34,015 nt of DNA from positions 1 to 34,015 of the IMG/VR virus record IMGVR_UViG_3300044216_000963; one strand, 5' to 3'. The first letter of the stretch is position 1, and each line of letters begins with the position of its first letter. The position numbers were made by a program, and so were the translations under genes. Below, in pieces: positions 743 through 34,015 of this stretch. The stretch is from a virus (Duplodnaviria; Caudoviricetes). A model generated the notes under the pieces. The model was not told the DNA's origin and did not search any database. It saw only the letters and a program-made list of their open reading frames with translations.

Positions 743-743
743 G

Positions 744-980
744 ATGGAAATGGAGTTGCTATGGAGTGCTGGACTAACTGGTTTACTTGGTATAGTAGGC
801 TGGATTATCCGTAGTCAACACGCAGAAACACAACGTATGCAAGTCCTACTAAATAAAACACGAGAGGAGATGGCTCGTGACTATATGACTAAAGCAGAAG
901 CTAACAGTGATATAAATAGAATAATAGACAGACTGGAGGCTCTAGACGCAAAGCTAGATAGAATTATAGAGAGAAGATGA
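744..980 (+). CDS. Small membrane protein (N-terminal TM plus coiled coil), holin-like
   Basis: LLWSAGLTGLLGIVGWII hydrophobic segment then coiled coil IIDRLEALDAKLDRII. ATG at 744 follows the previous stop. Confidence 0.55.
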   Translation: MEMELLWSAGLTGLLGIVGWIIRSQHAETQRMQVLLNKTREEMARDYMTKAEANSDINRIIDRLEALDAKLDRIIERR

Positions 981-1438
981 TAGATCCCATAACGGCTATT
1001 GCAGGTGCTACTGCTGCCTTTAACACACTGAAGAAAGGCATACAGGTTGGCAAAGACCTGCAAGACATGGGTGGCACTATGGCTAAGTGGGCTGGTGCGA
1101 TAGCTGATCTAGACTTTGCAGATAAACAGAATCAGAAACCTCCGTGGTACAAGGCTCTAGGTGGTGGTGTAGAGGCACAAGCAATGGAGATCTTTGCAGC
1201 AAAACAGAAGGCTGCATCTATGAGAGCAGAATTAAAAGACTTTATATCTGTGGTATATGGACCATCTAAATGGCAAGAGATATTAGAAATAGAAGCAAAA
1301 CTTAGAAAGCAAAAGAGAGAACATGAATACAGACAAATGGAAATCAAACAAACAATCATCGAATGGGCTACAGGTATTTTACTCTTTATTATTTCCGTTG
1401 GCCTTTTGTTCGGTTTTGTATGGATAGGAACTAGATAA
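977..1438 (+). CDS. Hypothetical protein with C-terminal TM helix
   Basis: 153-aa ORF with ATGA overlap, MIDPITAIAGA start and hydrophobic C-terminus. Confidence 0.7.
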   Translation: MIDPITAIAGATAAFNTLKKGIQVGKDLQDMGGTMAKWAGAIADLDFADKQNQKPPWYKALGGGVEAQAMEIFAAKQKAASMRAELKDFISVVYGPSKWQEILEIEAKLRKQKREHEYRQMEIKQTIIEWATGILLFIISVGLLFGFVWIGTR

Positions 1439-4400: not shown

Positions 4401-6075
4401 AATAGCTCAACAGGCAACAGTGTCTGTAAACGAGTTACCAGAGGCTGCTACTATAGCAGAATCTAACATGGCTCAGGCTAAGGTAGCACAGTCTGGTGGT
4501 TTACTTAGAGAAGAAGCTACAGCATATGCTGCAAAGTTAGATACTTTTAGTGTTGACAATGGTACACTAGCTAAAGCCATACAAGGTGAGGTAGGTGCTC
4601 TAGGAACTGTACAAGGTCAGTTAGAAAACCTGATGAGTCAGTTTGATGATGGTACACCAGCTTGGGCCGCAGGAGCTATGAGAGCCGCTAATGCTGCTAT
4701 GGCTGCAAGAGGACTAGGTGGTAGCTCTATGGCTGGTGCAGCTATCTTACAGGCTGCTATGGAGTCTGCATTACCTATTGCACAACAGGATGCTCAAACA
4801 TTTAACCAGATGAACATGAGCAACCTTAACAGGAGACAACAGGTTGCTCTGACTAATGCTGCTGCACAACAAGGGCTTGCTCTACAGAACTTGTCTAACG
4901 AACAACAGGCAGCACTACAGAATAGTACAAATGCTTTTGCTCTGCAGACACAAGACTTGTCTAACATGCAGCAAACATTCTTGGCTAACGCACAGATAAA
5001 GTCTGCACTACAGGGTCAAAACCTTAGCAATCAACAACAAGCCAACTTAGTTACAGCAGCTAGATACGCTGAAGTTTCTAACATGAACTTAAACAACAGG
5101 CAACAGACTGCTTTAACTAATAATGCAAACAACCTACAGATTGAGCTGTCAAATTTATCTAATAAGCAACAGGCTTATGTATCTAATGCACAACTTGCTG
5201 CAGCATTGCAAGGTAAACAAATAGATAATCAACAGCAAGCAGCTATACAAAATGCAGCTAGATTTGCAGAGGCAGCTAATATAAACTTTACTGCAGAACA
5301 ACAAGAACAATTACATAACTCTGAACTTATGAAAACTGTAGGTTTAGCTAATTTAAGTAATAGACAGGCTGCTGTATTACAAAACGCTGCTACTCTTGCT
5401 GCTATGGATACGGCTAATTTAAATAATAGACAACAGGCTGCGGTACAGAATGCTCAAAGTTTCTTACAAATGGACATGGCTAACCTGACTAATGCACAAC
5501 AGACTGAGATATTTAGAGCACAACAAAACATACAAGCGTTGTTTACTGATCAGGCTGCTACTAATGCTGCATCACAATTTAATGCTACCAGTGAAAACCA
5601 GACTAATCAATTCTTTGCATCACTAGCATCACAGACCTCACAATTTAATGCAACACAAGTTAATGCTACAAATCAGTTTAATGTAAATGCTGTAAATGGT
5701 ATCAGGCAATTTAATTCTAATTTACAAAATCAAAGAGATCAGTTTAATGCTAATAATGGTTTAGTAGTGGCACAAGCTAATGCACAGTGGAGACAGAATA
5801 TAGCAACTTTAAATACTGCTGTACAAAATGAAAGCAACATGGACTTTGCTAAGACAATTAATGAATTGACAGAAAATAACTTAGATCACATCTGGCAAAG
5901 AGAAAGAGATCTAATGCAGTACAATGTAGAGTCAATAGAAAACTCTAGAGATCGTGGTATGCAGATACTTCTTGGTTTACAAGACCTAGAAAGTTTAAGG
6001 GAAAGAATAGCAGCAGGTGAAGATCGTGCTCAAAATGATTTCTTGTTTAGTTTTCTGTTTGATATTTTTGATTAG
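1438..6075 (+). CDS. Large putative internal virion (ejection) protein with Q/N/A-rich repetitive C-terminus
   Basis: 1545-aa ORF in the structural arm with low-complexity segments and many NLSNxQQA-type repeats. Function inferred from position and composition. Confidence 0.65.
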   Translation: MATTFGSSESYEDTQARESAADNRPPPPTSIPPVEEAPPPADDTPVDDGLPDLGPMPDRTDVFLGGDDRNRMGDASFNLAKFSEDFVKRFSTVNRAGESSLSFSKLQEATPQELTLYDLNKDGKIDVTDALDIQTAGGATRIGGEKLQSIYNAIHDNSALMEKLGYRSDPKTFLLDDGREVTVDNPTLTKSYQDVRFPEQILNESAIFSGYDNDANNPMKRHMTVDAFKENRDRAKESLPNIEQGFFNSKQYADWYANTLFGIGTMDVRRSPYFGMQGSGSIGAAQDAAYEDYLNSTGNQSYLVDGDDFKPYMGVTLQDGQQEPATDMQVVGREDVSDTGSTSPFAGIQMGSGQQDQTVDTVVDPVQEEVVTYGDTNVGDQTQEAFGPVADSNITTYDPAGDSSAQIDTTGGATTTDTGLNIAAAPAATTSFSPRSATRSVASDTAGLGSVPTFGGGYQPGTVYEGTQFEARDSGIETVMYRNQRGQMIPVTLRNGKPITYVPPGYVRSMSEGGAVMPLESEHNLANKFLGYTGEKSRPALDDFYKSNPGAAARMGEYQKAVTGMSYGGYTGGPAERGRGAPAASPAPRSQPAAGIERGRTQQPRVSSPTPQATTQRSMGAPAPRQRDNDRSTPPRVATTQQQTRQTSQPKAMQFSDKDKGVSISYFNSQGEQIGVGDKRTSRLSFKDPMTRDIAKDLQDTGQSYEVRNNELLTSNSVLEGSKVFLKALRDKKLPVSYTSGNATYSLEANFIEEDTGRVNIPGGSYFAGVKLTTPNDFLLDLVRKMSGQNTLNRGGVIGGYQEGGASSDLSGEGNIDPVTGFETISYKDDIIPMFGDAVTQTMQPGQAPVSYIEEDQSQFLDASAGRVSDVAPYASAATVDTVETAMTPGVADTATYGATTAAGAVRDETARTTAATGTVSEGAQVDAAQGTVSDAAMADAAQFDSNFINRVNMGEMNVTSSQLVNAAGQDEVAPAVKIAQSSGIDPAIAQQATVSVNELPEAATIAESNMAQAKVAQSGGLLREEATAYAAKLDTFSVDNGTLAKAIQGEVGALGTVQGQLENLMSQFDDGTPAWAAGAMRAANAAMAARGLGGSSMAGAAILQAAMESALPIAQQDAQTFNQMNMSNLNRRQQVALTNAAAQQGLALQNLSNEQQAALQNSTNAFALQTQDLSNMQQTFLANAQIKSALQGQNLSNQQQANLVTAARYAEVSNMNLNNRQQTALTNNANNLQIELSNLSNKQQAYVSNAQLAAALQGKQIDNQQQAAIQNAARFAEAANINFTAEQQEQLHNSELMKTVGLANLSNRQAAVLQNAATLAAMDTANLNNRQQAAVQNAQSFLQMDMANLTNAQQTEIFRAQQNIQALFTDQAATNAASQFNATSENQTNQFFASLASQTSQFNATQVNATNQFNVNAVNGIRQFNSNLQNQRDQFNANNGLVVAQANAQWRQNIATLNTAVQNESNMDFAKTINELTENNLDHIWQRERDLMQYNVESIENSRDRGMQILLGLQDLESLRERIAAGEDRAQNDFLFSFLFDIFD

Positions 6076-6083
6076 GTGAAATA

Positions 6084-6776
6084 ATGGCACTATATACTAA
6101 AAAATCTTTGGAAGAGATAAGAAGCCAACTAGCTGAAGAGGATGCTAGAACAACAAAGGCTGTTAGAAAAACAGATAGACCTTATTTCATGAGGCGTAAT
6201 AGAGTTGATACAACATCTCCTTTAGGGGTTAGTGACCCAGTTGAAGAATTAATGGCAGAGTTTTCTTCTCGTTCAGCTACTATTGTTCGTCAAACAAGTG
6301 CTATTGCAAATGCAAAATCAAAGAATAGGCAACTAAAAGAAGAAATAACAGATTTGTCACCAACAGCAGAGGCAGGCGATCAAATATTTGTTAAGGGTGA
6401 AAAGGGTAAGCAACCGTTGACTATAAGAAATAATAATCCAGGCAATCTTAGATTTGCAGGTCAGGATGGTGCAGAAAAAGGTGAGGGAGGTTTTGCTAGA
6501 TTTAAAACAGCAGAGGCTGGTATGTTAGCAATGCGTAAACAAATAGTATTAGATACTCAAACCCGTGGACAAACATTAAGAGAGTTTATTAACAAGTATG
6601 CACCACCTAGCGAAAATGAAACAACTAAGTATTTAAAAACTGTATCTAATACAATAGGAATTGATCCTGATCAAAAAGTTCCTGAAAACTTAATAAATGA
6701 TTTGCAAAAAATTATGATACAACTAGAGGGTGGTAAAGTATCATTAGACTATTTTATGAGAGAAGATGAAGAATGA
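6084..6776 (+). CDS. Virion-associated lysozyme-fold (peptidoglycan hydrolase-like) protein
   Basis: IRNNNPGNLR, FARF..AEAG..A and TL..FINKYAPPSENET..Y motifs of phage virion lysozyme-like proteins. Confidence 0.7.
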   Translation: MALYTKKSLEEIRSQLAEEDARTTKAVRKTDRPYFMRRNRVDTTSPLGVSDPVEELMAEFSSRSATIVRQTSAIANAKSKNRQLKEEITDLSPTAEAGDQIFVKGEKGKQPLTIRNNNPGNLRFAGQDGAEKGEGGFARFKTAEAGMLAMRKQIVLDTQTRGQTLREFINKYAPPSENETTKYLKTVSNTIGIDPDQKVPENLINDLQKIMIQLEGGKVSLDYFMREDEE

Positions 6777-7300
6777 GTATAGTATTAGCTGCACCTATTC
6801 CAGGTCAATCATTAACTAAAGAACCTAAAAACATGCGCTTTGAGAGACCTCCTGATATTGCGAGTCCTCTTGAAGCACTGGATATGCACATAGATAACAT
6901 TACTAGACCAGAAGCATTAAGAGATGCTTTTCATTTTTTAGAAGAAGGTCTTGATCTTGTGTCTCTTGTTGAAGGTATATTGCGTAGTGCCGTAATGGGT
7001 GGCAGACATAGCTTAGATGTTAGTCTAATTATTGCGCCAGTATTACATGAATATATTAGAGGTCTTGCACTAGAAGCTGATGTAGAATTTGAAGAGGGTT
7101 TTGATAAGGCTCAAGATGATGGTATTGAATATACCAGAGATGCAAAACGTGCTAATGATATCCTACAACAAATGAAGAAAGAACAAGGTATGCCCATAGA
7201 TGAACCTATGGAAATGCAGCCTGAAGAAAAAGAAGAGCCAATGGTGGAGACTGAGGATATGCCCCTCACCCCACAAGGGCTGATGTCTAGGAGAGTATGA
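6773..7300 (+). CDS. Hypothetical (probable virion) protein
   Basis: 175-aa ORF with APIPGQSLT..P...ERPP start, translationally coupled on both sides. Confidence 0.65.
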   Translation: MSIVLAAPIPGQSLTKEPKNMRFERPPDIASPLEALDMHIDNITRPEALRDAFHFLEEGLDLVSLVEGILRSAVMGGRHSLDVSLIIAPVLHEYIRGLALEADVEFEEGFDKAQDDGIEYTRDAKRANDILQQMKKEQGMPIDEPMEMQPEEKEEPMVETEDMPLTPQGLMSRRV

Positions 7301-8274
7301 TGAAATTTTCATGGGCTGGTCTTAATGATGCATATCAAAGAAAAAGATTAGAAGATAGGGCAGACAAAGAAAGAGAAGAGGAGATAGCTCTTGCTCGTGA
7401 AAACACTTTGTTAGAACTTGGTTTAACCAGAAATAGAGATAGAGCAAAATTTAGAAGTAGCGAGCCTTACAGAGAGGCAGCAGAAGCTGTTATAAAGTTA
7501 GAAAAGAGACTGGAAGATATAACATTCGTTGATGATACACAAAAAAACTTTTTTGATAAATTAAAAACAGATCCTTTTGCTGTAAAAGAGGTATTTGATT
7601 TTATAGAAGAACAAGAGACCGAGTATAACAACTCTGTTAAACTGCTCGATCTCCCCCTTATGATAGATATAGTTACATCTAATGCACCTGTTGATCAACA
7701 GATAGATATTATTGGACAGATAACAAGTCAATCTTATGTTGGAGAAGAAGGAAAACAAAACTTTATTGACATGGCTTCTAAGTTAAATAACATTGTAACT
7801 ACACCTGGTCGTAATGTGTTTATTGATATAAAACCAGGAACTAGATTAGATCCAGTAAAAGTCAGTGCCAAAGAAGAAGCAATGATAGACATGGTAATAA
7901 ATAGTATTGTTAGCCCTGCTCTTACATACCAAATTAACAACCCCAACGACACTAAACTTAATGGTATACTAGAAGATGTTTATAGTGATAATTCAGCTAT
8001 AAAACAAAGAGGTCTTATACAATTATTTAATTACACACCATCAGGTAGAAATAGTTCTTTTGGTAGCCTTGCAGAACTTGAGGCGTTGATAAAAGCCAAC
8101 CCTGCATTAAGAGGTTTTCAAGAAACTAGTATTGGAAAAACAATACTCCAAGGCTACGTCTATCCAACACCTCCTCAAGAATCTATAGACGAATTAAGAG
8201 CAGATCCAAGTCCTGAGAAAAAACGAATTTTTGATTTAACATATGGTCCAGGAAAAGCAGATAGTTATTTATAG
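7297..8274 (+). CDS. Putative internal virion protein
   Basis: 325-aa ORF with RBS AGGAG, lying between virion genes. Confidence 0.6.
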   Translation: MMKFSWAGLNDAYQRKRLEDRADKEREEEIALARENTLLELGLTRNRDRAKFRSSEPYREAAEAVIKLEKRLEDITFVDDTQKNFFDKLKTDPFAVKEVFDFIEEQETEYNNSVKLLDLPLMIDIVTSNAPVDQQIDIIGQITSQSYVGEEGKQNFIDMASKLNNIVTTPGRNVFIDIKPGTRLDPVKVSAKEEAMIDMVINSIVSPALTYQINNPNDTKLNGILEDVYSDNSAIKQRGLIQLFNYTPSGRNSSFGSLAELEALIKANPALRGFQETSIGKTILQGYVYPTPPQESIDELRADPSPEKKRIFDLTYGPGKADSYL

Positions 8275-8281
8275 GTAGATA

Positions 8282-11200
8282 ATGACACAAAACGTAGTAC
8301 CCGAAGATTTTTTTCTAAAGTTTCATAACAAACAAACTCAAGATGTAGTACCTAGAGATTTTTTTCTAAAGTTTCATGAAACAGATACTGAAACTAAAAC
8401 TAGGGAAATTAATGAGATAGGGTTGCCTGAGGCTGGCACATACTCTGAGAATGATATGTCAGAGGATGATAATATGTTTTCTGTTGTAGAAGCATATATG
8501 ATAGACCGTTATGGTAAAAGATATGTAGAGAAACAATCTAGAGATGATCTTGTAGATGCGTTCTTAAATAATAGGAGAGGAGTTAGTGGAGGTAACAGTG
8601 TTCGTAATTTTGAGGAGACAAGATTTTTAAATAGAATACAAGATGACCCAGTAAAAATGGCTACGGCAGGTAAAGCCTACAAACTTTACGAAGATATGGC
8701 AGGATTGTTTAGCAAAGAACTTACTGTTGGAGAAAAGGTAGAAGGTAGTTTAGATTATATACGTACCTTTTTATTAGATCCTGTAAATGCTGTTGGTGGT
8801 ATATTAGGTAAAGTTGTTGGTGGTGGATCTGTTAGAGTTGCTTCTAATGTTGGTCAAAAAGCAGCTATGGAGGCAATGAAAAAGACCGCAGGCACAGGTG
8901 CAAGTGCTAAAACTGTAAAGAAAAAAGGTGCTGAAGCATTTAAAAAAGCCATAAGAGAAGCAGGTAAAGAAACGCAAAGAAACGCTGCTAGGTTTGCATC
9001 AGAGTTAAAAAATACCAGAGGTTTTAAAAGACTAATTCAAAAGGGTGCTGTAGCGGAGATAGCCACAGTTGCTAGTATAGATGCAATAGCTGCTGCAGGT
9101 ACAGATGCATTATATCAAAATGGCTTAATAAGAACAGGTGTTCAAGAAGAATTTAGTACTATGCAACTAGGTATTGCTGCCCTTGGTTCTGTTATTATGG
9201 GTGGAATACAAGCTGGTAGAGTTATGGCTAGAGGAGAAATTGGACCTCAGGCTTCACCATTAGTAACAGGGGGTGTAGAAAACAGAAAGGATGTACTAAA
9301 AGATTTAACACAGGATCTTATAAAATATGGGGAGATGCAGATACCTATTACTAAAAAATGGGAAGCTAGGGTTACAGATGGGCAAGAACTTTCTGATCTT
9401 GATTCTGATTTTTTTATAGAGTTGCTTTTAGGTAGACACTCAGAGGATGGTGAAGAGGTATTGTTTGAGGGGATATCACAAAAGGCAGCTAGAAATAATG
9501 TTTACTGGATAGAAGAATCAGACGAGAATGTAGGTAATTGGGTAGCAGAAATTATTGCAACATCAGAGCAGAAAGATGTGGATGAATTTGTAGATGCTTT
9601 TCGTAAAGCCACTGGCAATAAGTTAAGACAAATCTCTGCTAAGAAGATGACTCCAGAAAAACTAGCAGATACATTTGCAAATAAAATAAGTCAGTCTGCT
9701 AGAAATCTAAATGCTCTTAAACAAGTGGCAGATAGAAACTCTTTATCTATAGAAGATTTAGATGTAGAAACTTTTATTGCTACTGAGGCTGATCTACCTT
9801 TTAAAACAATAAAAAGAGAAACTGATAATCCAGAGATGAGTGGATTTGAAAAGTTTTTAGAGTTAACCCCAGATGCAATAGTAAATGCACAGAATAAAAC
9901 TATTAGACTATTAGTTTCTAATCCATCTACAAGTGCATTGAATGTTATTGGTTGGGGTGCTCATACATCTCTTAACACTGTATCTGATATAGCCTTAGCA
10001 ACTGTATATTTAGGTAAAGGTGGGTTGCAGAAGCTAGCCTTTATGGGTAACAGGGGGGACAATGATTTAAGAATAGCAAAACAGATAATGGCTACTACTT
10101 TGTTTAAGGGTAGGACAGTACTTGATCCTAGCATGACCAGAGCACATTTTGAAACCATGTTATCTAGAAATGCAAAAGCTATGGAGGCACTAGATAGCAC
10201 ACTCCCTGGAGGTGTAGAGAATGCAACTAAACTTATAACTGATGGAGAGTTTTCATCTACTGCACGTATGTTAGACCTTAAATCAGAACAAGTTGTTGAT
10301 ATGATACAAATGCTTAGTTTAGTTAAAGCACAGGATAGATTTACTAAGTCTGTAGAATTTGTATCTCAAATGGATAAAGCATTAAGACTACAATTTAATA
10401 AAGGTTGGGATGAATTTTATACTGACCCTAATGCAAGTAAACTTATGCAAACTAAAGAGTATTCTAGAATAGAAGCATTAGCTGTAGAGAGAACTTTAGA
10501 AACTATTTTTTCAAAGTCTTATAAAGGTAAAGGTGCTTTAGGTCAGATAGCTGGTGCTATTGAGGATGCTAGAAATATACCTGGTATAGGTTTAATGATT
10601 CCTTTTGGTAGATTTTTTAACAACACTGTTGATTTTGCTTTTCAAGCCAGTCCTATAGGTCTCTTTGGTAAATTAATGGGGTTTTATAAAGATAAAACTT
10701 ATAAAGAATTATCAGCAAAAGCTACTGTGGCTGTTGGTTTTGTGGCTTATTTATCACAGGATGAGGATGAAAAAAGAAGACAGGGTTTGGGTTTGTATGA
10801 AACTAGAACTCCAGGTGGTACAATAATTAATCAACAGTTTGACTATCCTTTATCTTTATTTAAAGCTGTTGCTCGTGTTATATCTATGCTTAATGCAGGA
10901 GAAACACCAACAGAAGATATGTTATCTCAAATATCTAGAGACTTTACTTTAGGAGGTTTACTTAGAAACTTAGATAGATCTCAGAAAGATATGGCAGAGT
11001 TATTATATCATGCCTTTAGATTAGAGTTAGAAGACGTTCAAAGATCTGCAATAAAAGTTAGTAGGGGTATTATTGCTCAACCTATAAATGCAGGTACAAG
11101 ATTTTTAGAACCACTTAATATTGTGGCTGGTGTTGTTCAAGGGGGTCAACAAAAAACAATAGATAGAGAACAAGGCAATAAATTTGTAAATGATGCCTTT

Positions 11201-11797
11201 CGTTACTTTGATAACATCATGCCTATCTTTGTGGGTGAGCGTCCAGAGTTGCAGTCTGCTGCAGTGGGTACAATTATACCGCCAGCGACAAAAGTATTTG
11301 GTATTAGACCAGTTGAGTTAACAGACACATCTGCTCTTTTAAACATGCTTGGTTATAGTAATTTTGAATTAAATGCAGAACGAAAGATAAGAGAGCAAGC
11401 ACCTAGAGCTGCTAATGAATATAATAGAATTTTATTCTCTGTGATAGAGGCAAAGTCTAAAGCACTTATGGATAACGAAGGGTTTAGAAACGCATCAATA
11501 GAAAGACAAAGATCTATATGGGACAAAGAAAAAAATGATGCTAAAGAGGCTGCAAGAGAAATTATAGTATTACAATATAGTGACTCTCATCCTGTCCATG
11601 GGTCAGTAGTAGACTTACAATATGATTTAACTAGAAAACATAGTAGGTCTGAGATAGATAAAGCTAGAGAAGAATTAGAACTCTCTGAGGATTTAGGTGA
11701 CTTAAACAGAGGTCAACTAATACTCCTCAGAGAATACTTTGATGTTAAAAAAACGGTAGATGAGATTAAAGATAATAAAATACTTAGGGGAAACTAG
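8282..11797 (+). CDS. Large putative internal virion protein
   Basis: 1171-aa helical ORF, last gene of the structural arm, positioned like podovirus ejection proteins. Confidence 0.65.
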   Translation: MTQNVVPEDFFLKFHNKQTQDVVPRDFFLKFHETDTETKTREINEIGLPEAGTYSENDMSEDDNMFSVVEAYMIDRYGKRYVEKQSRDDLVDAFLNNRRGVSGGNSVRNFEETRFLNRIQDDPVKMATAGKAYKLYEDMAGLFSKELTVGEKVEGSLDYIRTFLLDPVNAVGGILGKVVGGGSVRVASNVGQKAAMEAMKKTAGTGASAKTVKKKGAEAFKKAIREAGKETQRNAARFASELKNTRGFKRLIQKGAVAEIATVASIDAIAAAGTDALYQNGLIRTGVQEEFSTMQLGIAALGSVIMGGIQAGRVMARGEIGPQASPLVTGGVENRKDVLKDLTQDLIKYGEMQIPITKKWEARVTDGQELSDLDSDFFIELLLGRHSEDGEEVLFEGISQKAARNNVYWIEESDENVGNWVAEIIATSEQKDVDEFVDAFRKATGNKLRQISAKKMTPEKLADTFANKISQSARNLNALKQVADRNSLSIEDLDVETFIATEADLPFKTIKRETDNPEMSGFEKFLELTPDAIVNAQNKTIRLLVSNPSTSALNVIGWGAHTSLNTVSDIALATVYLGKGGLQKLAFMGNRGDNDLRIAKQIMATTLFKGRTVLDPSMTRAHFETMLSRNAKAMEALDSTLPGGVENATKLITDGEFSSTARMLDLKSEQVVDMIQMLSLVKAQDRFTKSVEFVSQMDKALRLQFNKGWDEFYTDPNASKLMQTKEYSRIEALAVERTLETIFSKSYKGKGALGQIAGAIEDARNIPGIGLMIPFGRFFNNTVDFAFQASPIGLFGKLMGFYKDKTYKELSAKATVAVGFVAYLSQDEDEKRRQGLGLYETRTPGGTIINQQFDYPLSLFKAVARVISMLNAGETPTEDMLSQISRDFTLGGLLRNLDRSQKDMAELLYHAFRLELEDVQRSAIKVSRGIIAQPINAGTRFLEPLNIVAGVVQGGQQKTIDREQGNKFVNDAFRYFDNIMPIFVGERPELQSAAVGTIIPPATKVFGIRPVELTDTSALLNMLGYSNFELNAERKIREQAPRAANEYNRILFSVIEAKSKALMDNEGFRNASIERQRSIWDKEKNDAKEAAREIIVLQYSDSHPVHGSVVDLQYDLTRKHSRSEIDKAREELELSEDLGDLNRGQLILLREYFDVKKTVDEIKDNKILRGN
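8285..8377 (+). repeat. 51-bp-period tandem duplication at the gene start
   Basis: TQNVVPEDFFLKFH / TQDVVPRDFFLKFH; the DNA agatttttttctaaagtttcat occurs twice. Confidence 0.85.
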
Positions 11798-22394: not shown

Positions 22395-22810
22395 CATACC
22401 TTTCTACCCCTAAGTGCGAAGAACAAACCACCAACCCATAGTAATACATGTAAGTTATCGTACAGTAAAACATCTAACAGACTATCAGGTTCACCCACCC
22501 ATATCACACCTGTCATTATGCAGCAGATAACTAAACCACTAAACCTTGTAACCATATCCTCTACCCAAGGATGATCTAGGTGTAGATAAGTAAAAGATAT
22601 CAACCCACCTATTATTAATCCCATACCTGCACCTAGCTCACCGTAAGCTGCAAACCACCACACGATGTACGGTAGTTCAAATGCCTCAGCATCATCAATA
22701 CTTATAGGCAACTTAGACAAACCTTGTTGTATAAATACAATGGCCAAAGGTATCCTTAGCAACCAATGAGATAAACAGAACTCAGGTATCATGTTTAAAA
22801 TCTTATTCAT
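22394..22810 (-). CDS. DoxX-family membrane protein
   Basis: LLRIPLAIVFIQQGLSK and GELGAG.GLIIG motifs with several TM segments. RBS GGAGG. Confidence 0.8.
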   Translation of the reverse strand: MNKILNMIPEFCLSHWLLRIPLAIVFIQQGLSKLPISIDDAEAFELPYIVWWFAAYGELGAGMGLIIGGLISFTYLHLDHPWVEDMVTRFSGLVICCIMTGVIWVGEPDSLLDVLLYDNLHVLLWVGGLFFALRGRKV

Positions 22811-23156
22811 GCTCACCTCCAAACATCCTACTACTGGTTACATTATCGGTAGGATCTATTTTAGATTTTTTCTCAGCCTCTTTGTAAACCATTGCGGTAA
22901 TAAATATACCTCCGATTAGTAGAGAGTGGCCCATCCCACTGATTGCAAACCAGAACATGTTACCTATCCACAATGCAAAGATTGCACTCCACATGTATGC
23001 CAGTATTTGAAAGACTGCATGTGCAGCCATTGGATCAAGCCTTTGAATGTGACGTAACGGAGAATTCTGTATAGTCATCACACTGTCCCATGCCTCTTTA
23101 AATAAATCAAAGACACTAACAATGCTCAAAGGCACAACCTTTAATTTGTTACTCAT
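22803..23156 (-). CDS. Hypothetical membrane protein
   Basis: Two hydrophobic helices (FQILAYMWSAIFALWIG; HSLLIGGIFITAMVY). Confidence 0.7.
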   Translation of the reverse strand: MSNKLKVVPLSIVSVFDLFKEAWDSVMTIQNSPLRHIQRLDPMAAHAVFQILAYMWSAIFALWIGNMFWFAISGMGHSLLIGGIFITAMVYKEAEKKSKIDPTDNVTSSRMFGGEHE

Positions 23157-23959: not shown

Positions 23960-24131
23960 CCCAAAAATCCCCCCACCTATCTTGCATAGCTAAGTTAAAC
24001 TCTGTGTTATCTGCAATGAAGGATAACAAATCATACAACTCATCTGCGTAATCGTCGTGTAGAGTTCCCTCTTTAAAACAATCAGCCCAAAATCTCAGGA
24101 CATTAGGCGGTATCGTTCGTTTTCGTTTCAT
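23943..24131 (-). CDS. Hypothetical protein
   Basis: 62-aa ORF with GAGGGG RBS-like sequence. Confidence 0.5.
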   Translation of the reverse strand: MKRKRTIPPNVLRFWADCFKEGTLHDDYADELYDLLSFIADNTEFNLAMQDRWGDFWDEKIH

Positions 24132-24885
24132 TACGCCACGCCCCCTCTTCACAGAATAATCCACAATCTACATCATAATCTTTCATCTTGTGTCCTTTCG
24201 CTTTTGGATCTAGATCCTCTAATAATATTCTTATATTGTTTACTCTAACAAGTCTAGCCCCAATCTTTTTTGACTGTTCCATCCTGTCTTTGAATACCTC
24301 AGGGTGTTTCTCTCTGACAAAGTTCCAATAGGTAGGTGAGGTAGCCTTTACACAACCTATACAATTGGCATTGGAATAGCCGTTTAGATAGAGACTAGGT
24401 AATCTTATGCCAGCATCCATGATTATGTTAAAACAATGTTGTTTAGTGTATCCCTTATCTACCAATGGTGTTAATAAAGTATCACGCTCAGTCATCTTAA
24501 ACCTATCTGCCCTACCTTGTTCTTCTGATGTAAACCCAAGTACAGTCCAGTCAGGTTTATGTATAGCCTCCCAGTTCTGCCTAGGTTTTTTCTTTAACTC
24601 CAGTGTACAAGGTGCGCCACTAACCCCAGACATATACTTCCTGTCATCCCACACCTCTTTAACAGATCCTCTAGGATACTTGGTAGACTTTACGTGTTCT
24701 ATCGGGTGATCTAGCCAGTCTTGTACATCACGTAAGAACCTTTGATTATCCTCACCCTCTTCTAGTATTGGATTGTTTAGTATAGAAACCTTATTATCTT
24801 TTCTATAAACATCCAGAGTAACTCTAGCAGCTACAGCAGATGCAGCACCGCATGAAAACCACACTGCTATATGTTGGTCTTTCAT
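24103..24885 (-). CDS. PP-loop (adenine nucleotide alpha hydrolase) / PAPS-reductase-like protein with Cys motifs
   Basis: VWFSCGAASAVAA PP-loop-like motif, APCT.ELK, VLGFT.EE..R, PL, NANCIGCVK and C-terminal CGLFC. Confidence 0.75.
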   Translation of the reverse strand: MKDQHIAVWFSCGAASAVAARVTLDVYRKDNKVSILNNPILEEGEDNQRFLRDVQDWLDHPIEHVKSTKYPRGSVKEVWDDRKYMSGVSGAPCTLELKKKPRQNWEAIHKPDWTVLGFTSEEQGRADRFKMTERDTLLTPLVDKGYTKQHCFNIIMDAGIRLPSLYLNGYSNANCIGCVKATSPTYWNFVREKHPEVFKDRMEQSKKIGARLVRVNNIRILLEDLDPKAKGHKMKDYDVDCGLFCEEGAWRNETKTNDTA

Positions 24886-26833: not shown

Positions 26834-28452
26834 TATTCATTATCTCCTTCTTCCCATTCATTTGTTTTATCATTAAGAATATATCCTAATCCCTTGGCCT
26901 CGTCAATAGATAATACATCACCACTGAATGAAAGAATTGCGGCCTGACCATTTGGATACCACTCACTATCACCATCAGATACAAAGTATTCATCATCAGT
27001 GTGAGGTGATATCCATGTGTTATCATACTCACAATAGCTACAGTCCTCTGTTCTCCAAAGATTACCACCATTATCCTCAACTGCTTCACCATCACCAACA
27101 ATAGACTCATGGTATGAGTTTTGATCAATGCCCCATCTAGATTGTGAATATACCATTACAGATTCACGCTCATGGCAATCTTCGTGAATGTACTCACAAT
27201 AGAAATGCTCTTCATAGAAACACTCCTCACAGTATTGATGACCAGTATACTCTGAGTATCTAGCATCATCCTCATACACTGTCTCACCACACTCATAGCA
27301 AAAGCCACAACCATTCTGTAAGATACCTGAATAATCACTAGCATCTATCTCACCACCATATTGTATAACTAGGTTATCACCATCATCAGTCAATGCTTGT
27401 GGACCCAGATCAATATAGGGCGCAATATAACCACCACGATATTCTACACGCAGCAACTTAGCACCCTCCCAAGCACCAGACTCACACAAAGTATAGTCAC
27501 TATCACACTCTTTGAGCTTGGTACGTATCATGTCAATAGACTGTTCAGTAGTGCCATAGATAGGCCCAGCACGATAGCTACCATTTTTAACATACACAGT
27601 ACAGCGAGAGCCAATCAGACCTTTATCATCCTCAGTGTAAAAGATCTTGAAGTCACCACTGGCATAAGCAGATGCAGGGTGCATAGGAAAACCTGAGAAC
27701 TGAGTTGATTCATGACAATCAGGATTGGTCTTGTACCTCATACATGAGTTTGCCATGGACTTGTTTGAAAAGGTAGTAGTGATGTTTTCCATGGGGGCTT
27801 GTTTGCCCGAATAAGCATGAGAGAAGTCATCTTTTGTGTGACCAATATGTACGGTAAAGTCACGCTGCACAAACTCACGAAGATATTTATCCACCATGCT
27901 ATCCACCTCAGTATCTGACAACTCAGGAAACATGAGAGAGATTGCACGACCGGGCTTCATGGCTACCTCACGGTCTTGATCACGATCTTTTAGAGATTGG
28001 TACAGACTGATCTTACCATCAAACTTTTGTGATCTAAATGGTTGGAATGCACGTAGACGCCACGAAAATCTAAACTTATTTAGATCCTTGTAAGTAGTGG
28101 GTGTAGAACACTGTAAGACAGACTCCAGCCAGTTGAACAGGCGAGTATCCTTCTTGTCCCAAGGATCAATATCACCATATCTGCCCCATATTTTGAGGAC
28201 AGGATCAGTCTCACTGTCATCAGTGGTATACACACGTTTGACTATAAATGCAGTACCTTCAGAGGGTTTAGTAAACCCATGCAAATGGTAGATGTTACCA
28301 CTGTCGAGCATGATACTGCCAAAGACTGCACCCTCATCACCATGAATAGACACGCGATCCATCGCATAAGGTTTGCCTCTACGGATATCTGTACCCACCT
28401 CAATATAGTCAGGCAGGGCATCAGGGTTGATCATAATAGCTTCAAACGGCAT
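26833..28452 (-). CDS. Hypothetical protein with an 'SCMR' core and C-terminal Cys-rich Zn-finger repeats
   Basis: MKPGR, NSCMRY, HP..AY, GSRC.VY, PIYG, PYID, then CYECG...YCEEC...YCEY..EDC...CSYCEY. Confidence 0.75.
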   Translation of the reverse strand: MPFEAIMINPDALPDYIEVGTDIRRGKPYAMDRVSIHGDEGAVFGSIMLDSGNIYHLHGFTKPSEGTAFIVKRVYTTDDSETDPVLKIWGRYGDIDPWDKKDTRLFNWLESVLQCSTPTTYKDLNKFRFSWRLRAFQPFRSQKFDGKISLYQSLKDRDQDREVAMKPGRAISLMFPELSDTEVDSMVDKYLREFVQRDFTVHIGHTKDDFSHAYSGKQAPMENITTTFSNKSMANSCMRYKTNPDCHESTQFSGFPMHPASAYASGDFKIFYTEDDKGLIGSRCTVYVKNGSYRAGPIYGTTEQSIDMIRTKLKECDSDYTLCESGAWEGAKLLRVEYRGGYIAPYIDLGPQALTDDGDNLVIQYGGEIDASDYSGILQNGCGFCYECGETVYEDDARYSEYTGHQYCEECFYEEHFYCEYIHEDCHERESVMVYSQSRWGIDQNSYHESIVGDGEAVEDNGGNLWRTEDCSYCEYDNTWISPHTDDEYFVSDGDSEWYPNGQAAILSFSGDVLSIDEAKGLGYILNDKTNEWEEGDNE

Positions 28453-28609
28453 ATTCTATCTCCTCATATTCTTCTTCTGTTACAGCACTACGCAAAAGTA
28501 AATCCGCATAGACATTACCAAAGATTACATTTTTATTGATCCACCAATAGCAAGAGAGATCAATCCCCTCCTCTGCCAGTACATCATGTACATCATAGTT
28601 ATCCACCAC
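28442..28609 (-). CDS. Small acidic protein, absent from the ORF track
   Basis: GTG start after AAGGAG; about 55 aa VDNYDVHDVLAEEGIDLSCYWWINK...EEIEYAV. Fills the gap. Confidence 0.5.
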   Translation of the reverse strand: MVDNYDVHDVLAEEGIDLSCYWWINKNVIFGNVYADLLLRSAVTEEEYEEIEYAV

Positions 28610-28967
28610 ACTTCTCCTTTACATAAACATGAGGTCTATTGTTTTCATCCAAGATCAAGATGGCATACTCCGCCTCATGTATTGGTTCATGGGTATGCAC
28701 ATCATAAAAGTAACCATATTGATAAGGATCATACCTGACCTTTTTCAATCCGTCAATAGCTGGTTTTACATCTAGGGTTTCCATCTCTCCCTTCACAAAA
28801 GCATGGACATTCTTCTGCCTATCTCTGAGAACAGCAGCTCTCCCCCCTGCCCTGACAACGAAGGTAGGTCTATCCACCCTCACCAACGTGGCATAGAATA
28901 CGGGCGTACTCTTTGCACGAATAGAATACACCCTCTTATTGATGTTATAATATATTTCTCTGATCAT
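28599..28967 (-). CDS. Conserved hypothetical early phage protein
   Basis: YYN..K..YS, F.V...GR..VLR..QKNVHAFV.G, V.YDPY....F pattern. Confidence 0.75.
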   Translation of the reverse strand: MIREIYYNINKRVYSIRAKSTPVFYATLVRVDRPTFVVRAGGRAAVLRDRQKNVHAFVKGEMETLDVKPAIDGLKKVRYDPYQYGYFYDVHTHEPIHEAEYAILILDENNRPHVYVKEKCGG

Positions 28968-29194
28968 CCATCATACTCCTTTTGTAAATCAAAATACTTT
29001 TGGTAATCATCATCACTACCTAGTCTAGCATCCTCATCCCATTCAAGAAATTGAGTGAGGCTATCCCACCCAAGGTCACACTTAGACGGATCAATGGTAT
29101 CTGTTAGCTCACCATTTGGTTGAACGAAAAAAGGCCATCCATCAGATGCAATCCACAGTTCAAGTTTATTAGACAAATTTTTGGCGTCCATCAT
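28964..29194 (-). CDS. Hypothetical early protein
   Basis: 76 aa from ATG 29194 with AAAGGA RBS. Confidence 0.6.
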   Translation of the reverse strand: MMDAKNLSNKLELWIASDGWPFFVQPNGELTDTIDPSKCDLGWDSLTQFLEWDEDARLGSDDDYQKYFDLQKEYDG

Positions 29195-29309
29195 ACATCC
29201 TTTCCAGAAAATCCTCACAATGAGGACGTATAGTTTGTGACTGGCGAAAAAATTTTGAGAATGGGGGCGTCTAATACCTCACATTTTCAAAAAAGTATCT
29301 GAATAGATA

Positions 29310-29340
29310 CAGGAAAACCCTAGAAAATTCCCTAGGGTTT
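29310..29340 (-). terminator. Terminator-like hairpin after the first early gene
   Basis: Perfect 9-bp inverted repeat AAACCCTAG (29315-29323) / CTAGGGTTT (29332-29340). Confidence 0.55.
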
Positions 29341-29355
29341 ACTCTTTATCTACTC

Positions 29356-29868
29356 TCAAGCTGCTTTCTTTGAAGCTTTAGCAACCATAAGCGCCTTTAC
29401 TTGTGTATTGATTGCAGCAACAAGCGAAGCTTCTGTCACGTTCTCTTTAGCTATGCGCTTGGCTATTTGTTCTGCAAACTTGGACAAATCAAAAGCATTT
29501 TCTGTTTTATCTTCGCCTTTGATTGCAGCGAGTAAATTGCCGCGAATTGATAGACCGTCTTTAACTGCATTTTTAAAACGGTCTAGTGCATCATTGTCCA
29601 CATTGTCGCCTAACGTAATGACAAGCGATTTTTTGTCCTTAGCAATTTTTGTTTTTGCTTCAGGAAAGATAATGGCAACAATTTGCTGCACTGTTTTTGC
29701 GCCGTGTGTATCACCATTTTTGCGCAACCGAAACAAAGCGGAAGCAATGTTACGACTATCACCACCTATTGCAAATGTTACTAGGTCAAGTAATCTCGCT
29801 GCTGCAATTTTTCCTGATCCCATATTTGAAACAAAAGCATTTTCAATTTTTTTGATATCGTTGGTCAT
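29356..29868 (-). CDS. First early gene: basic, Ala/Lys-rich hypothetical protein
   Basis: 170 aa, RBS AAAAGGA, ends KASKKAA. Confidence 0.75.
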   Translation of the reverse strand: MTNDIKKIENAFVSNMGSGKIAAARLLDLVTFAIGGDSRNIASALFRLRKNGDTHGAKTVQQIVAIIFPEAKTKIAKDKKSLVITLGDNVDNDALDRFKNAVKDGLSIRGNLLAAIKGEDKTENAFDLSKFAEQIAKRIAKENVTEASLVAAINTQVKALMVAKASKKAA

Positions 29869-29886
29869 AGTATTTTATCCTTTTAG

Positions 29887-30406
29887 TAGGGTTTCGAATT
29901 AGAACATATCAGAATTAATATGCTCAAAAATGAAACCCTAGGACATCGCCTAAACCATGCCCTAGGATAATTTTACTCTTTCACAATCCCATCTTTACTC
30001 TGCTAGATTGTGATTAGATCAAAACCAATTGATTAAATCTTATATCACTGCATTAACTTAATAACGTCTTAACTTGATTGTTAGCCTTTGGCTATAAACC
30101 TCAGGAACAAGCTTTGATTTACTGTATTGGTCCAATAGTTTTCTATTCTTTTTTAAACTCCTAAAGAAAACGCTAATCGGTACAGCTCACAACGTTGCAA
30201 AGTATCGACGGGTAACTAGATCATTTTCACCAATTTAATAAGAGTATCTTTGAGGCTCTCATTGATTACTTGCCTAGTCGCTGCCGAAACCACCTAGCGT
30301 TCATGATCGCTATATAAGTAAATCCTCAAGGGTACAGAGGATCGCTAGGTACTAGCAGGGTTTCACACATGATACGCAGGGAAACCGGGACCGCGTTTTT
30401 TGTCAC
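29887..30406 (-). ncRNA. Putative large structured RNA or 5' leader of the early transcript
   Basis: No ORF of 60 aa or more. At least nine helices, several with G-U pairs only on the minus strand, and an upstream promoter candidate. Confidence 0.6.
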
Positions 30407-30412
30407 AACCCG

Positions 30413-30441
30413 TACATATTAATGGCCGAAAAACCCGTCAA
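30413..30441 (-). promoter_or_regulatory. Sigma70-like early promoter
   Basis: TTGACG-17-TATGTA. The missing -7 T is common in alphaproteobacterial promoters. Confidence 0.5.
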
Positions 30442-30654
30442 GACCATAAGCTGGCAAAATATACTAATGTCCCATTTCATATACCTATTTCCCTTTAATC
30501 AAATAAATTAGTACAATAGGATAGGTGCTGTATCCAATAGGTACGTTTTTGGGATTAACTGCATTTTAGCTATTTTTAAATTATAATGAGTTATCCAATT
30601 TTTCCGCCAGCGCTACTAACGAATAGCCAACTGCACGATGGGGTAGGGTTATTT

Positions 30655-30768
30655 TACCCTAAAGTATAGGCGATATGGGATTGTAGATAGCTCTATGGTT
30701 CATTAGTATGTATATACTGAATTGTGCATCTCCTATCCTTCCCCACACTTGCCCTATACTTTTGGGTA
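30655..30768. repeat. Long inverted repeat
   Basis: TACCCTAAAGTATAGG (30655-30670) versus CCTATACTTTTGGGTA (30753-30768), 15/16 complementary. Confidence 0.75.
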
Positions 30769-31077
30769 TAATTTGGTAAAAATTGGGTACAAACAATATA
30801 ACATTGTCTATAAACCCTATAAAAAAGAGTATGTTACTCGCGCAATAAATATTAATGTCTAATCCAAAGGTATAACAGCCCCTATCCTTATGGGTAGGCA
30901 TGGGCCACCCCCCGGTACTACGTAGCGTATGCACACCCAATGACAGAGATGGGGTTTTTAAGTCCTGAAATATTCTGTAACAAAACGTGATAATTAATAT
31001 TTTTTAATTGTAAGGTAAAAAATTAAGAAATATTTAAGTGATGATAGAGATTTTTTGTAAAAAAGTTAAAAAAGGTA

Positions 31078-31105
31078 TTGACACGGCGGCTATATGTGAT
31101 ATAAT
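31078..31105 (+). promoter_or_regulatory. Consensus sigma70 promoter
   Basis: TTGACA-16-TATAAT with an A-rich UP-like tract upstream. Confidence 0.7.
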
Positions 31106-31121
31106 TAAATATAATATAAGA

Positions 31122-31270
31122 TAATATCTTAAGTTATACCTAAGAGTGATACCTTAGAGTCCTAATACCAAGAAGTTTAATAATCTAAAGTGATAATCTT
31201 AAGTAATAACCTTAAGTGTCTATTAATTTTATTTAGATTTATTAGATTATAAGAGGTAATAACCTTATGT
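31122..31270 (+). repeat. Array of degenerate 13-bp repeats (about RATAMYCTTAAGT)
   Basis: Units at 31122, 31135, 31148, 31164, 31179, 31192, 31205 and 31258. Confidence 0.8.
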
Positions 31271-31325
31271 AATTACTTAATGTACAGGGTGTTCAACTTT
31301 TTTCTGTCGTTCCAAAGAAAAGGTG

Positions 31326-31354
31326 TTGACATCTTGGATGATACAGGATATAAC
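31326..31354 (+). promoter_or_regulatory. Sigma70-like promoter abutting a start codon
   Basis: TTGACA-17-TATAAC, 5 nt before ATG 31360. Confidence 0.65.
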
Positions 31355-31359
31355 TAGGC

Positions 31360-31611
31360 ATGTCTAAACCAAAAATGTATTCTTCAGACAAAGTTATAGA
31401 AGAATTTTATAATGCTCTTGCCAGTGAAGACGAAGGAAGATTACGAAGAGTACATATTCCTAGATCTGATGTATTTTATGTCAGAGAAAAGATCTTCCAG
31501 GATACAGGAGTTAAGTATTCTTTAGATCATGTGGAACGTTCAATGTATTTAGAAGGTATGTTGGACGTTAAAGACGTTTTAGAACCTAGAAGAAAGAGAA
31601 AGTATGGCTAG
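31360..31611 (+). CDS. Hypothetical protein, first gene of the late arm
   Basis: 83-aa ORF directly after a promoter. Confidence 0.7.
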   Translation: MSKPKMYSSDKVIEEFYNALASEDEGRLRRVHIPRSDVFYVREKIFQDTGVKYSLDHVERSMYLEGMLDVKDVLEPRRKRKYG

Positions 31612-31819
31612 TACAATTATAGATGACTACAAAATCTTCCCAAGGTTGATGATGTTGGTGGTAACTATTTTAACTTACCAGTCTGTACACTGGTATATGT
31701 CTTTACCTGACCCCACTAACGGTCAAGCAGGACTAGTTTCAGTCTGTATGGGTGCACTAACAGGTTGTTTTGGCATATGGATGAATAAAGAAGCTAAGAC
31801 AGATCGTGGAACAAAATAA
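31604..31819 (+). CDS. Two-TM membrane protein (holin-like)
   Basis: IFPRLMMLVVTIL...W.M.L.DPT..Q.GLVS...GALTG.FGIW, located near the endolysin. Confidence 0.65.
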   Translation: MASTIIDDYKIFPRLMMLVVTILTYQSVHWYMSLPDPTNGQAGLVSVCMGALTGCFGIWMNKEAKTDRGTK

Positions 31820-32028
31820 TGTATGTAATTGTTTTAGTGATGTTCTTGAATGGGGGCCATAAGATAGCCTCAGATCAGATACTATATCCAAATCAAGAGA
31901 TGTGTGAAGTTGCAGAGGCAGTGCTATTACAAAAACTAGAGGCTTCTAAACCTACCCCAGACTCTTTTGTAATTACTAAATGTGTAGAAATGTCTTTTGC
32001 TAAAGAATCAAAAGGAATATCACTATGA
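31819..32028 (+). CDS. Hypothetical protein with hydrophobic N-terminus and two Cys
   Basis: MYVIVLVMFL...YPNQEMC...KC, translationally coupled. Confidence 0.6.
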   Translation: MYVIVLVMFLNGGHKIASDQILYPNQEMCEVAEAVLLQKLEASKPTPDSFVITKCVEMSFAKESKGISL

Positions 32029-32411
32029 TCCAGGCATTAATAGGACCGATAGCAGAACTGGCTGGTGGATGGCTAAAAGGAAAAGCTAGTGCACAGGCTG
32101 CAGCATCTAATCTTAAACTTGTAGAGGCAGAGGCAAAAGCTACCATTATGAAGTCTGCTGCTACCTCAGAAGCTGACTGGGAAAAGATTATGGCTCAAGG
32201 TTCTCAGTCTAGTTGGAAAGACGAGTGGCTAACGATTTTATTTTCAATACCTCTTGTACTTGTATTTACAGGGGACTGGGGTAGAGAAATAGTAGCAAAT
32301 GGTTTTGTTGCTTTGGAAACAATGCCTGAGTGGTATCAGTATACGCTAGGTGTAATTGTAGCTGCCAGCTTTGGTGTCAGATCAGCTACGAAGTTTTTTG
32401 GGAGGAAGTGA
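32025..32411 (+). CDS. Putative holin (3TM-type)
   Basis: SWKDEW.TILFSIPLVLVF...MPEWYQY.LGVIVAASFG.R, upstream of the endolysin. Confidence 0.7.
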   Translation: MIQALIGPIAELAGGWLKGKASAQAAASNLKLVEAEAKATIMKSAATSEADWEKIMAQGSQSSWKDEWLTILFSIPLVLVFTGDWGREIVANGFVALETMPEWYQYTLGVIVAASFGVRSATKFFGRK

Positions 32412-32515
32412 TGGCACGTAAGAAACCTGCACCTAAAAAAGGTAAAAAGGGTATGGCAATAATCATATCAGTTTGCCCACCTAAAAAGAAACCTGTAAGA
32501 AGGAAAAAGAAATAA
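32411..32515 (+). CDS. Tiny Lys/Arg-rich protein
   Basis: RBS GGAGG; 34 aa MARKKPAPKKGKKGMAIIISVCPPKKKPVRRKKK; coupled on both sides. Confidence 0.6.
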   Translation: MARKKPAPKKGKKGMAIIISVCPPKKKPVRRKKK

Positions 32516-33369: not shown

Positions 33370-33549
33370 ATGGCTAAAACAAAATCAAAAGTAAATCAAG
33401 CGGGAAACTATACTAAACCAGCTATGCGTAAAAGAATGTTTAGTGCAATCAAATCAGGATCAAAAGGTGGTAGACCTGGGCAATGGTCGGCAAGAAAAGC
33501 CCAGCTACTAGCAGCCAGGTATAAAAAAGCAGGAGGGGGCTATAAATAA
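33370..33549 (+). CDS. Small basic phage protein, absent from the ORF track
   Basis: 59 aa MAKTKSKVNQAGNYTKPAMRKRMFSAIKSGSKGGRPGQWSARKAQLLAARYKKAGGGYK. Confidence 0.75.
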   Translation: MAKTKSKVNQAGNYTKPAMRKRMFSAIKSGSKGGRPGQWSARKAQLLAARYKKAGGGYK

Positions 33550-34015
33550 TGAAAATAAAAAATATTTTACTTTTTACATTTTTTACATTAGGTGTAACAA
33601 ATGTTTTACATGCAAGAGATTATGTTAGCATTGCTGGTTCTTCCACTGTCTTACCTTTTGCAACTATTATTGCAGAAGAATTAGGTAATAATCCTATGTA
33701 TAAAACTCCTGTAGTTGAATCTGGTGGTTCGTCAGTAGGGAAAAAAGGTGTATGTGAAGGTACTGGTACAGAGTTTATTGATATTGGTAATGCGTCATCT
33801 CGCATGAAGCCAAAAGAGTTAGAGTTTTGTAATAGTAATAATGTAGAGGTTACAGAAATAAAAGTAGGTTATGACGGTATTGTTGTAGCTAATTCAAAGA
33901 AGGGCCAGCTTTTAAATATTTCTAAATCAGATTTAGGTAAAGCACTTACTGCACAGATTGCCCTAGAAGATGGAACTTGGATAGATAACCCTTATGACAA
34001 ATGGAGTGATGTTAA
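33549..34015 (+). CDS. pstS: Phosphate ABC transporter substrate-binding protein, 3'-truncated
   Basis: Signal peptide, then ARDYVSIAGSSTVLPFA, VESGGSSVG, DIGNASSRMK..E, EIKVGYDGIVVA. Frame open to the window end. Confidence 0.9.
   Translation, partial: MKIKNILLFTFFTLGVTNVLHARDYVSIAGSSTVLPFATIIAEELGNNPMYKTPVVESGGSSVGKKGVCEGTGTEFIDIGNASSRMKPKELEFCNSNNVEVTEIKVGYDGIVVANSKKGQLLNISKSDLGKALTAQIALEDGTWIDNPYDKWSDV

Follow-up and report, generated by a model that had tools for sequence, protein, structure and literature searches.

What does a phage encode in the gene-free DNA that precedes the first gene of its early arm? The question is raised by the window studied here, the whole 34,015-nt stretch of IMG/VR record IMGVR_UViG_3300044216_000963 (completeness 61%), in which an initial annotation had noticed a densely paired region and proposed an unfamiliar RNA. 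This gene-free DNA specifies a folded RNA of several domains, conserved among relatives, that matches no Rfam family, and we regard the existence of a selected RNA structure there as close to certain. The conserved core of this leader sits where sister phages carry what reads as a copy of the alphaproteobacterial rRNA boxA; the distinctive feature of the locus is a lineage without boxA, and the core that replaces it.

Genome context

The structural genes form a rightward block (27-11797), which abuts a leftward arm of ~18 kb running from 29868 to 11794, and a second rightward block begins at 31360. The structured stretch precedes the first gene of the leftward arm, as had been proposed; the gene-poor gap that holds it was put at ~500 nt and is in fact ~1.5 kb (29869-31359). 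The arm encodes a primase/helicase, DNA polymerase, nucleases, ribonucleotide reductase, thymidylate synthase, an integrase and a peptidase. No phage RNA polymerase was found among the 38 ORFs compared with PHROGs and the 15 compared with Pfam, and the window holds no tRNA genes.

The DNA polymerase is most similar to that of Roseobacter phage CRP-6 (54.7%), with Zobellviridae-like phages also among the best matches, and ORFs of 1545 and 83 aa match CRP-2, CRP-9, CRP-207 and HMO-2011. HMO-2011-type phages proper have a DNA polymerase with DnaJ central-domain CxxCxGxG motifs; assignment to that type was rejected on the polymerase matches and on the lack of a CxxCxGxG motif. The pairing of a cobavirus-like DNA polymerase with HMO-2011-type structural genes is shared with CRP-9-type roseophages, as far as the accessible part of PMC8528129 describes them, but in CRP-9, as in CRP-13, there is neither the RNA core at the record ends nor the 170-aa gene family in the first 4 kb. 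We infer a host in the Roseobacter group.

Several other features of the window were recorded. Auxiliary genes encode a PAPS reductase-like protein, DoxX and a phosphate-binding PstS-like protein (24106-24885, 22397-22822, 33549-34013), and 26836-28452 encodes a 539-aa early protein with a cysteine- and acid-rich C-terminal part and no PHROG or Pfam match, adjoined by a zinc peptidase. A perfect (12/12) extended sigma-70 type promoter at 31078-31105 would drive the rightward block and is followed by AT-rich 13-nt direct repeats and palindromes (31179-31283), a candidate replication origin. The non-coding block at 30875-30965 is conserved in 48 fetched loci, resembles a block in the ends of CRP-13, CRP-1, CRP-2 and CRP-603, and is possibly a genome-end or packaging signal; the contig ends of the fetched loci are not sharply clustered there.

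The first early gene and its relatives

Relatives were gathered through the 170-aa protein encoded by the first early gene: 23 homologues, then 13 viral and 43 metagenome loci, 19 more loci for a distant clade, and further members among loci fetched with their neighbouring genes. Clades A and B make up the lineage of the window (38-95% identity), clades C and D the distant lineages; duplicates and loci with truncated upstream DNA (L084, L096, L108, L109, L127 and others) were left out of the counts. The family amounts to 194 clusters at 50% identity. The predicted model (pLDDT 88) found no clear match in the PDB (best Z 7.1), while in BFVD the best match was an unnamed 166-aa protein (E 4e-3), with weak matches to uncharacterised podophage proteins of 160-215 aa, and in the ESM Atlas the fold matched unnamed viral clusters. 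For the proposals that the RNA acts as a decoy, in anti-defence or as an RNP with this protein no positive evidence emerged, the protein having no Pfam match over the cut-off, no PHROG match and no clear fold match.

The association of the leader with this gene proved sound: the RNA core was found only upstream of the 170-aa family. A long leader precedes the family gene in every homologue found, except in the cobavirus PQ867845, where the gene is ORF6 and lies away from the leader. Used as sole query, the 170-aa protein retrieved no viral contig and no isolate. Protein searches for prophage copies, run without a positive control, found none in GTDB and none in 401 genomes of the family of genome G001, and a search for the core in 151 of those 401 genomes, likewise without a positive control, gave no match. 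At DNA level the leader had no match in 50,697 phage records, and among 80 loci neither blastn nor nhmmer, given this one sequence as query, detected a leader homologue. The record ends of eight isolates contain neither boxA nor the core, and CRP-13, CRP-2 and CRP-603 have almost no leader.

Some neighbouring arrangements are worth recording. In two loci (L089:81-563 and L134) the RNA core is separated from the family gene by one additional small gene, which brings a long hairpin of its own. A motif 3' of the 170-aa gene (29238-29259) is conserved in clade A relatives; its core and a site upstream of the promoter (30597-30610) form a 14-bp, 93% inverted repeat that flanks leader and gene, and the two may be protein-binding sites. 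The ends of CRP-9 (L309) and CRP-207 (L311) have their own unrelated leaders of ~330 nt with a long hairpin before the Shine-Dalgarno sequence (SD), and no boxA was found in them.

A folded RNA on the minus strand

The region has no ORF of at least 30 aa on either strand in 29903-30399, and the sense strand has no SD-led ORF of at least 8 aa. The minus strand folds better than expected (29870-30420, -150.9 kcal/mol, z -3.99, none of 100 shuffles as good), and the same comparison for the plus strand gave z -1.61, with 5 of 100 shuffles as good. This strand-specific folding, together with the covariation described below, bears out the view that a minus-strand RNA is under selection. Most of the excess, measured in 120-nt windows, comes from the 3' part (z -5.5 and -6.4 within 29860-30019); local excess is slight in the conserved core (z -1 to -2), which is supported by covariation, not local energy.

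All eight two-arm helices and the 30082-94 hairpin listed initially can be found in the letters, and in both imperfect helices the imperfect positions are indeed G-U on the minus strand. Three of the helices nevertheless need revision. The helix 29981-88/30006-13 has a pair probability of 0.00 because its bases are taken by a conserved long-range helix (30197-212/29988-30003, probability 0.99). The helix 30322-27/30337-42 forms in the window (0.9), but its register is not kept in relatives. The helix 29937-46/29957-66 has four bases in common with 29887-95/29932-40, and its outer three pairs accordingly have a probability of at most 0.07.

The letters of the proposed promoter are present (Table 1), and transcription would start near 30406. 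A consensus promoter scanner did not list this site because its -10 box lacks the last T. The -35 box has no counterpart in L095, the closest relative; at the corresponding position clade B leaders show a TTGACA/TTTACA-type box, 17 nt of spacing and a -10 box that is T-less.

Table 1. Features of the early leader and first early gene (window coordinates)
Feature	Position	Strand	Description
Candidate host-type promoter	30413..30441	-	-35 box 30441-30436 (TTGACG), 17 nt, -10 box 30418-30413 (TATGTA)
5' hairpins (D0)	30359..30411	-	30359-64/30381-86, probability ~0.8
Domain 1	30281..30358	-	covarying stem, invariant UA/UG step, 4-nt bulge 30290-30287
Domain 2	30214..30279	-	stem with loop-E / bulged-G type loop, AGUA 30270-30267, GAA 30228-30226
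Domain 3	29988..30212	-	long-range closing stem, probability 0.99, variable interior
Domain 4 hairpin	29937..29966	-	kept in clade A
Domain 5	29887..29940	-	long hairpin: 7 bp, internal loop, 12 bp; ends 5 nt before SD
Shine-Dalgarno-like AAGGA	29878..29882	-	sequence
First early gene	29356..29868	-	encodes lysine-rich 170-aa protein, predicted mostly helical; phage family with unassigned function
Long interrupted hairpin	29300..29355	-	directly 3' of stop codon; z about -5, both strands

Conserved core and variable domains

The core, formed by domains 1 and 2, is present in 34 of 35 clade A/B leaders, L130 being a divergent member, and its identity to that of the window is 80% in L095 and 34-59% in the others. 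Profiles built without the window and L095 recovered the window core as the top match in the 34 kb (E 5e-5 to 2e-4), and a profile of clade B alone also had it as best match (E 8e-5). Its stems covary across clades A and B, so that the prediction of covariation in relatives held. On the coding-DNA tree, 13 pairs showed 44 double-sided changes, 16 single changes that keep the pair and 6 breaks, with pairs parsed by hand from anchors on invariant motifs and with change counts somewhat inflated by mosaic haplotypes (the L009 group). Among 485 pair cells, 96 are G-U and none is A-C, about 68 of the G-U cells coming from two nearly invariant pairs. The sense strand is better folded than the antisense strand in eight of ten relatives.

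The bulge of domain 1 is GUUU in 33 of 35 leaders and GUCU in the other two. For the seven outer pairs of the domain, 34-35 of 35 sequences have a standard pair (for one of the seven, 12/12), with up to four pair types each, and in an alignment fitted to that very helix the outer helix is 96.7% paired, with five of six pairs altered on both sides. The 8-bp helix 30292-99/30343-50 is its inner continuation, and only the first pair of it stays in register across the set. In domain 2 the signature reads xGUA in 32 of 34 leaders (AGUA in 21) and GAA in 33 of 34, between covarying flanks; from this signature we take the loop to be a loop-E/bulged-G motif, and it would probably adopt loop-E geometry in three dimensions. 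The inner helix of this domain is 96.5% paired in an unfitted alignment (0/500 shuffles reached this, and slid controls gave 26-53%). L082 and L135 have domain 1 only, without the loop-E stem.

Outside the core conservation is looser, and leader length in clades A and B ranges from about 280 to 540 nt. The D0 hairpins align only between the window and L095. The closing stem of domain 3, which holds a 2x2 GA/AA loop (30206-05/29995-94), was found in 23 of the 30 leaders parsed, with four in which it was not found and three parsed elsewhere; the domain is missing in the subgroup L091/L133/L136/L146, and its interior is not conserved even between the window and L095. Neither a partner for the GUUU bulge nor a consistent kissing loop was found, nor was a conserved pseudoknot in clades A and B.

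Hairpins bracket the gene. In 18 chosen leaders, domain 5 (19 pairs) is 88.1% paired, with double-sided changes in 14 of the 19 (0/500 shuffles), and a hairpin stands before the SD in all 24 leaders folded. Domain 5 is a predicted site of RNase III cleavage. The hairpin after the stop codon recurs in 14 of 14 relatives folded and is a candidate second processing site or terminator.

A boxA in the sister clades

A matrix trained on the C/D sites themselves found a boxA-like site in every one of the 26 clade C/D leaders (13-23 bits) and in none of 35 clade A/B leaders, where the best scores (up to 7 bits) are at shuffle level. The best score for the window is 1.0 bit, against a shuffle mean of 3.6, and near its leader no boxA within one mismatch was found. 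Conversely, the core is absent from every C/D leader searched with the core models. The C/D motif, CGYUAUUUGAMAWU, lies near the leader 5' end. A scan of GTDB with this motif found at least 120 loci, and among the matches listed 20 lie 180-280 nt before a 16S rRNA start, the position of the boxA of rrn leaders; 18 of these 20 are classed as Alphaproteobacteria, including Paracoccaceae, and two are titled Bosea. NusB-NusE bind boxA to start antitermination, according to the available part of PMC3177189. On the protein tree the exchange of boxA and core amounts to one switch, and therefore does not constitute repeated co-evolution.

The C/D leaders contain 350-600 nt of folded RNA beyond boxA, with other structures than those of clades A and B, mostly folded above shuffles (L080 is not). 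With such folding beyond boxA, extensive structure could have some other role in every clade.

Clade C leaders, which occupy 500-600 nt upstream of the family gene (L007, L051, L064, L065, L161-L165, L172), represent a second, different folded RNA that is led by boxA, reaches z -7.3 and has no Rfam match; it has an apparent covarying pseudoknot, in which the loop of the first domain pairs with a segment after the conserved AUCCAU..GGUAAA. The boxA-led leaders of clade D (400-550 nt; L002, L013-L015, L021, L022, L042, L044, L080, L173, L175) have a short GACA..CCCGAU element in common with the domain 1 hairpin of clade B, hinting at a possible exchange of modules between leaders. In the cobavirus PQ867845 (Cobavirinae, L308:440-926), ORF1 is preceded by a leader of ~480 nt that includes a boxA-like site and a long hairpin. 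Among the GTDB matches listed, 41 alphaproteobacterial sites, many in Bradyrhizobium, have no adjacent detected 16S or 23S start (L189-L307, for example L189, L206, L216, L227, L250 and L262) and may head prophage, CRISPR or other non-coding transcripts.

Comparison with known RNAs

Rfam 15 gives nothing for the leader region, in keeping with the initial failure to recognise a family. Over 28500-32500 at E up to 5 the only match was a plant miRNA model (E 2.6) outside the region; 18 related loci gave no matches at the gathering score, and 16 loci at E up to 10 gave three weak matches, none in a leader. Group II intron, T-box, c-di-GMP riboswitch, hatchet and twister-sister were rejected by eye, with no defining elements or Rfam signal, and a sarcin-ricin loop mimic was rejected because there is no GAGA tetraloop.

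The initial annotation left open whether this was a large ncRNA or a complex leader. The evidence favours a 5' leader and not a stand-alone RNA of the ROOL/GOLLD kind, because no terminator-like site was found between the core and the SD, no tRNA is present, and the size and the middle of the RNA vary. With ROOL, GOLLD and OLE it shares a phage origin, a length of several hundred nt, multiple domains and an unassigned function, as these RNAs are portrayed in the accessible part of 10.1101/2024.12.08.627333. It differs in having no Rfam match, no tRNA island and no conserved pseudoknot in clades A/B, in its strongly varying size and middle domain, and in running into an SD and a gene; a processed 3' end is possible.

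The leaders of rRNA operons and the lambda nut and pL N-leader offer another parallel: the window leader, too, is a promoter-proximal untranslated RNA ahead of the first early gene, and the sister clades of the 170-aa family carry a copy of the rrn boxA at this place. The lambda N leader carries an RNase III site, and the window leader likewise has a long hairpin before its SD. The window leader and its clade differ in lacking boxA. Lambda N itself is short, arginine-rich and disordered, whereas the 170-aa protein is predicted to be folded and helical and matches no family.

HK022 put shows that a phage RNA alone can drive antitermination; it is a two-stem RNA that binds the beta' zinc-binding domain in E. 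coli, as given in the available part of PMC9378689. Like put, the leader is an early phage cis-RNA with adjacent bulged stems, for which we propose action on host RNA polymerase. A put-type two-stem RNA was rejected, judged against the description in the accessible part of PMC9378689: the core is larger (~145 nt, within a leader of 280-540 nt), has other motifs, including a loop-E stem, and belongs to a probable Roseobacter-group phage.

For domain 5 the nearest likeness is to the early RNase III signals of T7. RNase III sites occur on most T7 transcripts, and an internal loop leads to a cut in a single strand (PMC3867540, in its available part). Domain 5 has the same build, ~19 bp with an internal loop and varying sequence with pairing kept, and lies just before a gene; a similar hairpin follows the 170-aa gene. 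Cleavage of domain 5, in contrast, is predicted; the proximal and distal box rules are degenerate, and the comparison covered length, pairing and position.

Function of the leader

From the promoter-like site onwards the order is core, variable domain, RNase III-like hairpin, SD, gene 1, a long hairpin and the 18-kb arm. The reading we tentatively prefer, at somewhat below an even chance, is a cis-acting antitermination leader that replaces boxA and is cut by RNase III. Host RNA polymerase would start near 30406 soon after DNA entry, domains 1 and 2 would fold co-transcriptionally, and the face formed by the bulge and the loop-E would be presented to RNA polymerase, a Nus factor or the 170-aa protein, making elongation through the leftward arm more processive. 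A subsequent RNase III cut in domain 5 would leave the SD of gene 1 free and detach a leader fragment of ~480 nt. This cis-acting processivity signal is favoured because sister clades put a known antitermination signal at the same place, and the swap with boxA gives it indirect support. Against it count the single boxA/core switch on the tree, the long folded RNA that accompanies boxA in clades C/D as well, the size of the core and its unlikeness to put, a -35 box that L095 does not keep, and the absence of both boxA and core from L090 and several cultured relatives. The leftward arm shows no enrichment of terminator-like sites (12 found, six on the minus strand; shuffles 8.3 +/- 3.3), and promoter-like sites occur within it at 28756, 26906 and 23721. 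A bolder version, which we hold to be possible though doubtful, is that in domains 1-2 one marine roseophage lineage has a new class of antiterminator RNA in place of a host-mimicking boxA, and that this RNA modifies alphaproteobacterial RNA polymerase directly or through the 170-aa protein, which may then be a non-lambda N analogue.

The same anatomy could instead describe a precursor, from which an RNase III cut at domain 5 frees a stable RNA of ~480 nt (domains 0-4) that acts in trans early in infection, decoying a host protein or serving it as a scaffold, perhaps together with the 170-aa protein. A multi-domain fold with invariant unpaired bases suits such an RNA, the long structure is kept in the boxA clades too, and domain 5, which covaries, would leave its 3' end well defined and protected by a hairpin (PMC3867540, accessible part). 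The range of lengths, the loss of domain 3 in one subgroup and its unconserved interior sit poorly with it, as does a window without the tRNA that usually accompanies ROOL and GOLLD; no target or partner was found, and we see this as a fairly unlikely account. Translational or stability control of gene 1, for instance through an operator to which the lysine-rich protein would bind in autoregulation while domain 5 gates the SD, would explain why the core was found only upstream of this gene family, why domain 5 ends so close to the SD and why hairpins lie on both sides of the gene. We find it distinctly unlikely: in the window 330-490 nt separate the conserved core and the SD, clades C and D combine the same protein family with unrelated leader folds, L089 and L134 place another gene between core and family gene, and in the cobavirus the family gene is sixth, away from the leader. 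Pairing as a by-product, whether of DNA hairpins or protein sites at a genome end or of generic 5' structure that shields the first transcript, is very improbable. The region is near the conserved non-coding block that is possibly a genome end, and the core alone has little local folding excess; but the covariation is G-U rich and strand-specific, and the invariant loop motifs are typical of RNA tertiary or protein contacts.

Significance

To our knowledge, RNA-only antiterminators are known from few systems, of which HK022 put is the structurally solved one. No published description of the leader RNA was found, the supplement of PMC10690425 being readable in part only; six leader motif strings were not found in the readable part of its supplements (three of six files), and the leader may be among the 10,000 candidates of that study. 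A literature search combining 'HMO-2011' and 'noncoding RNA' returned 0 papers, and the available part of the Minerva preprint (10.64898/2026.09.22.753630) holds nothing on a leader RNA.

One phage gene family thus has two alternative leaders at the same place, a copy of the host rRNA boxA and a new folded core whose bulge and loop-E bases are nearly invariant, and this swap makes function directly testable by terminator read-through. If the antitermination reading is true, the boxA leader and the structured core would be a natural swap pair before the same gene in the same position, and would allow a test of how an RNA makes polymerase processive. If the mechanism differs, the leader still represents a new RNA family of marine podophages with good covariation, from which an Rfam-style model could be built and whose structure could be probed.
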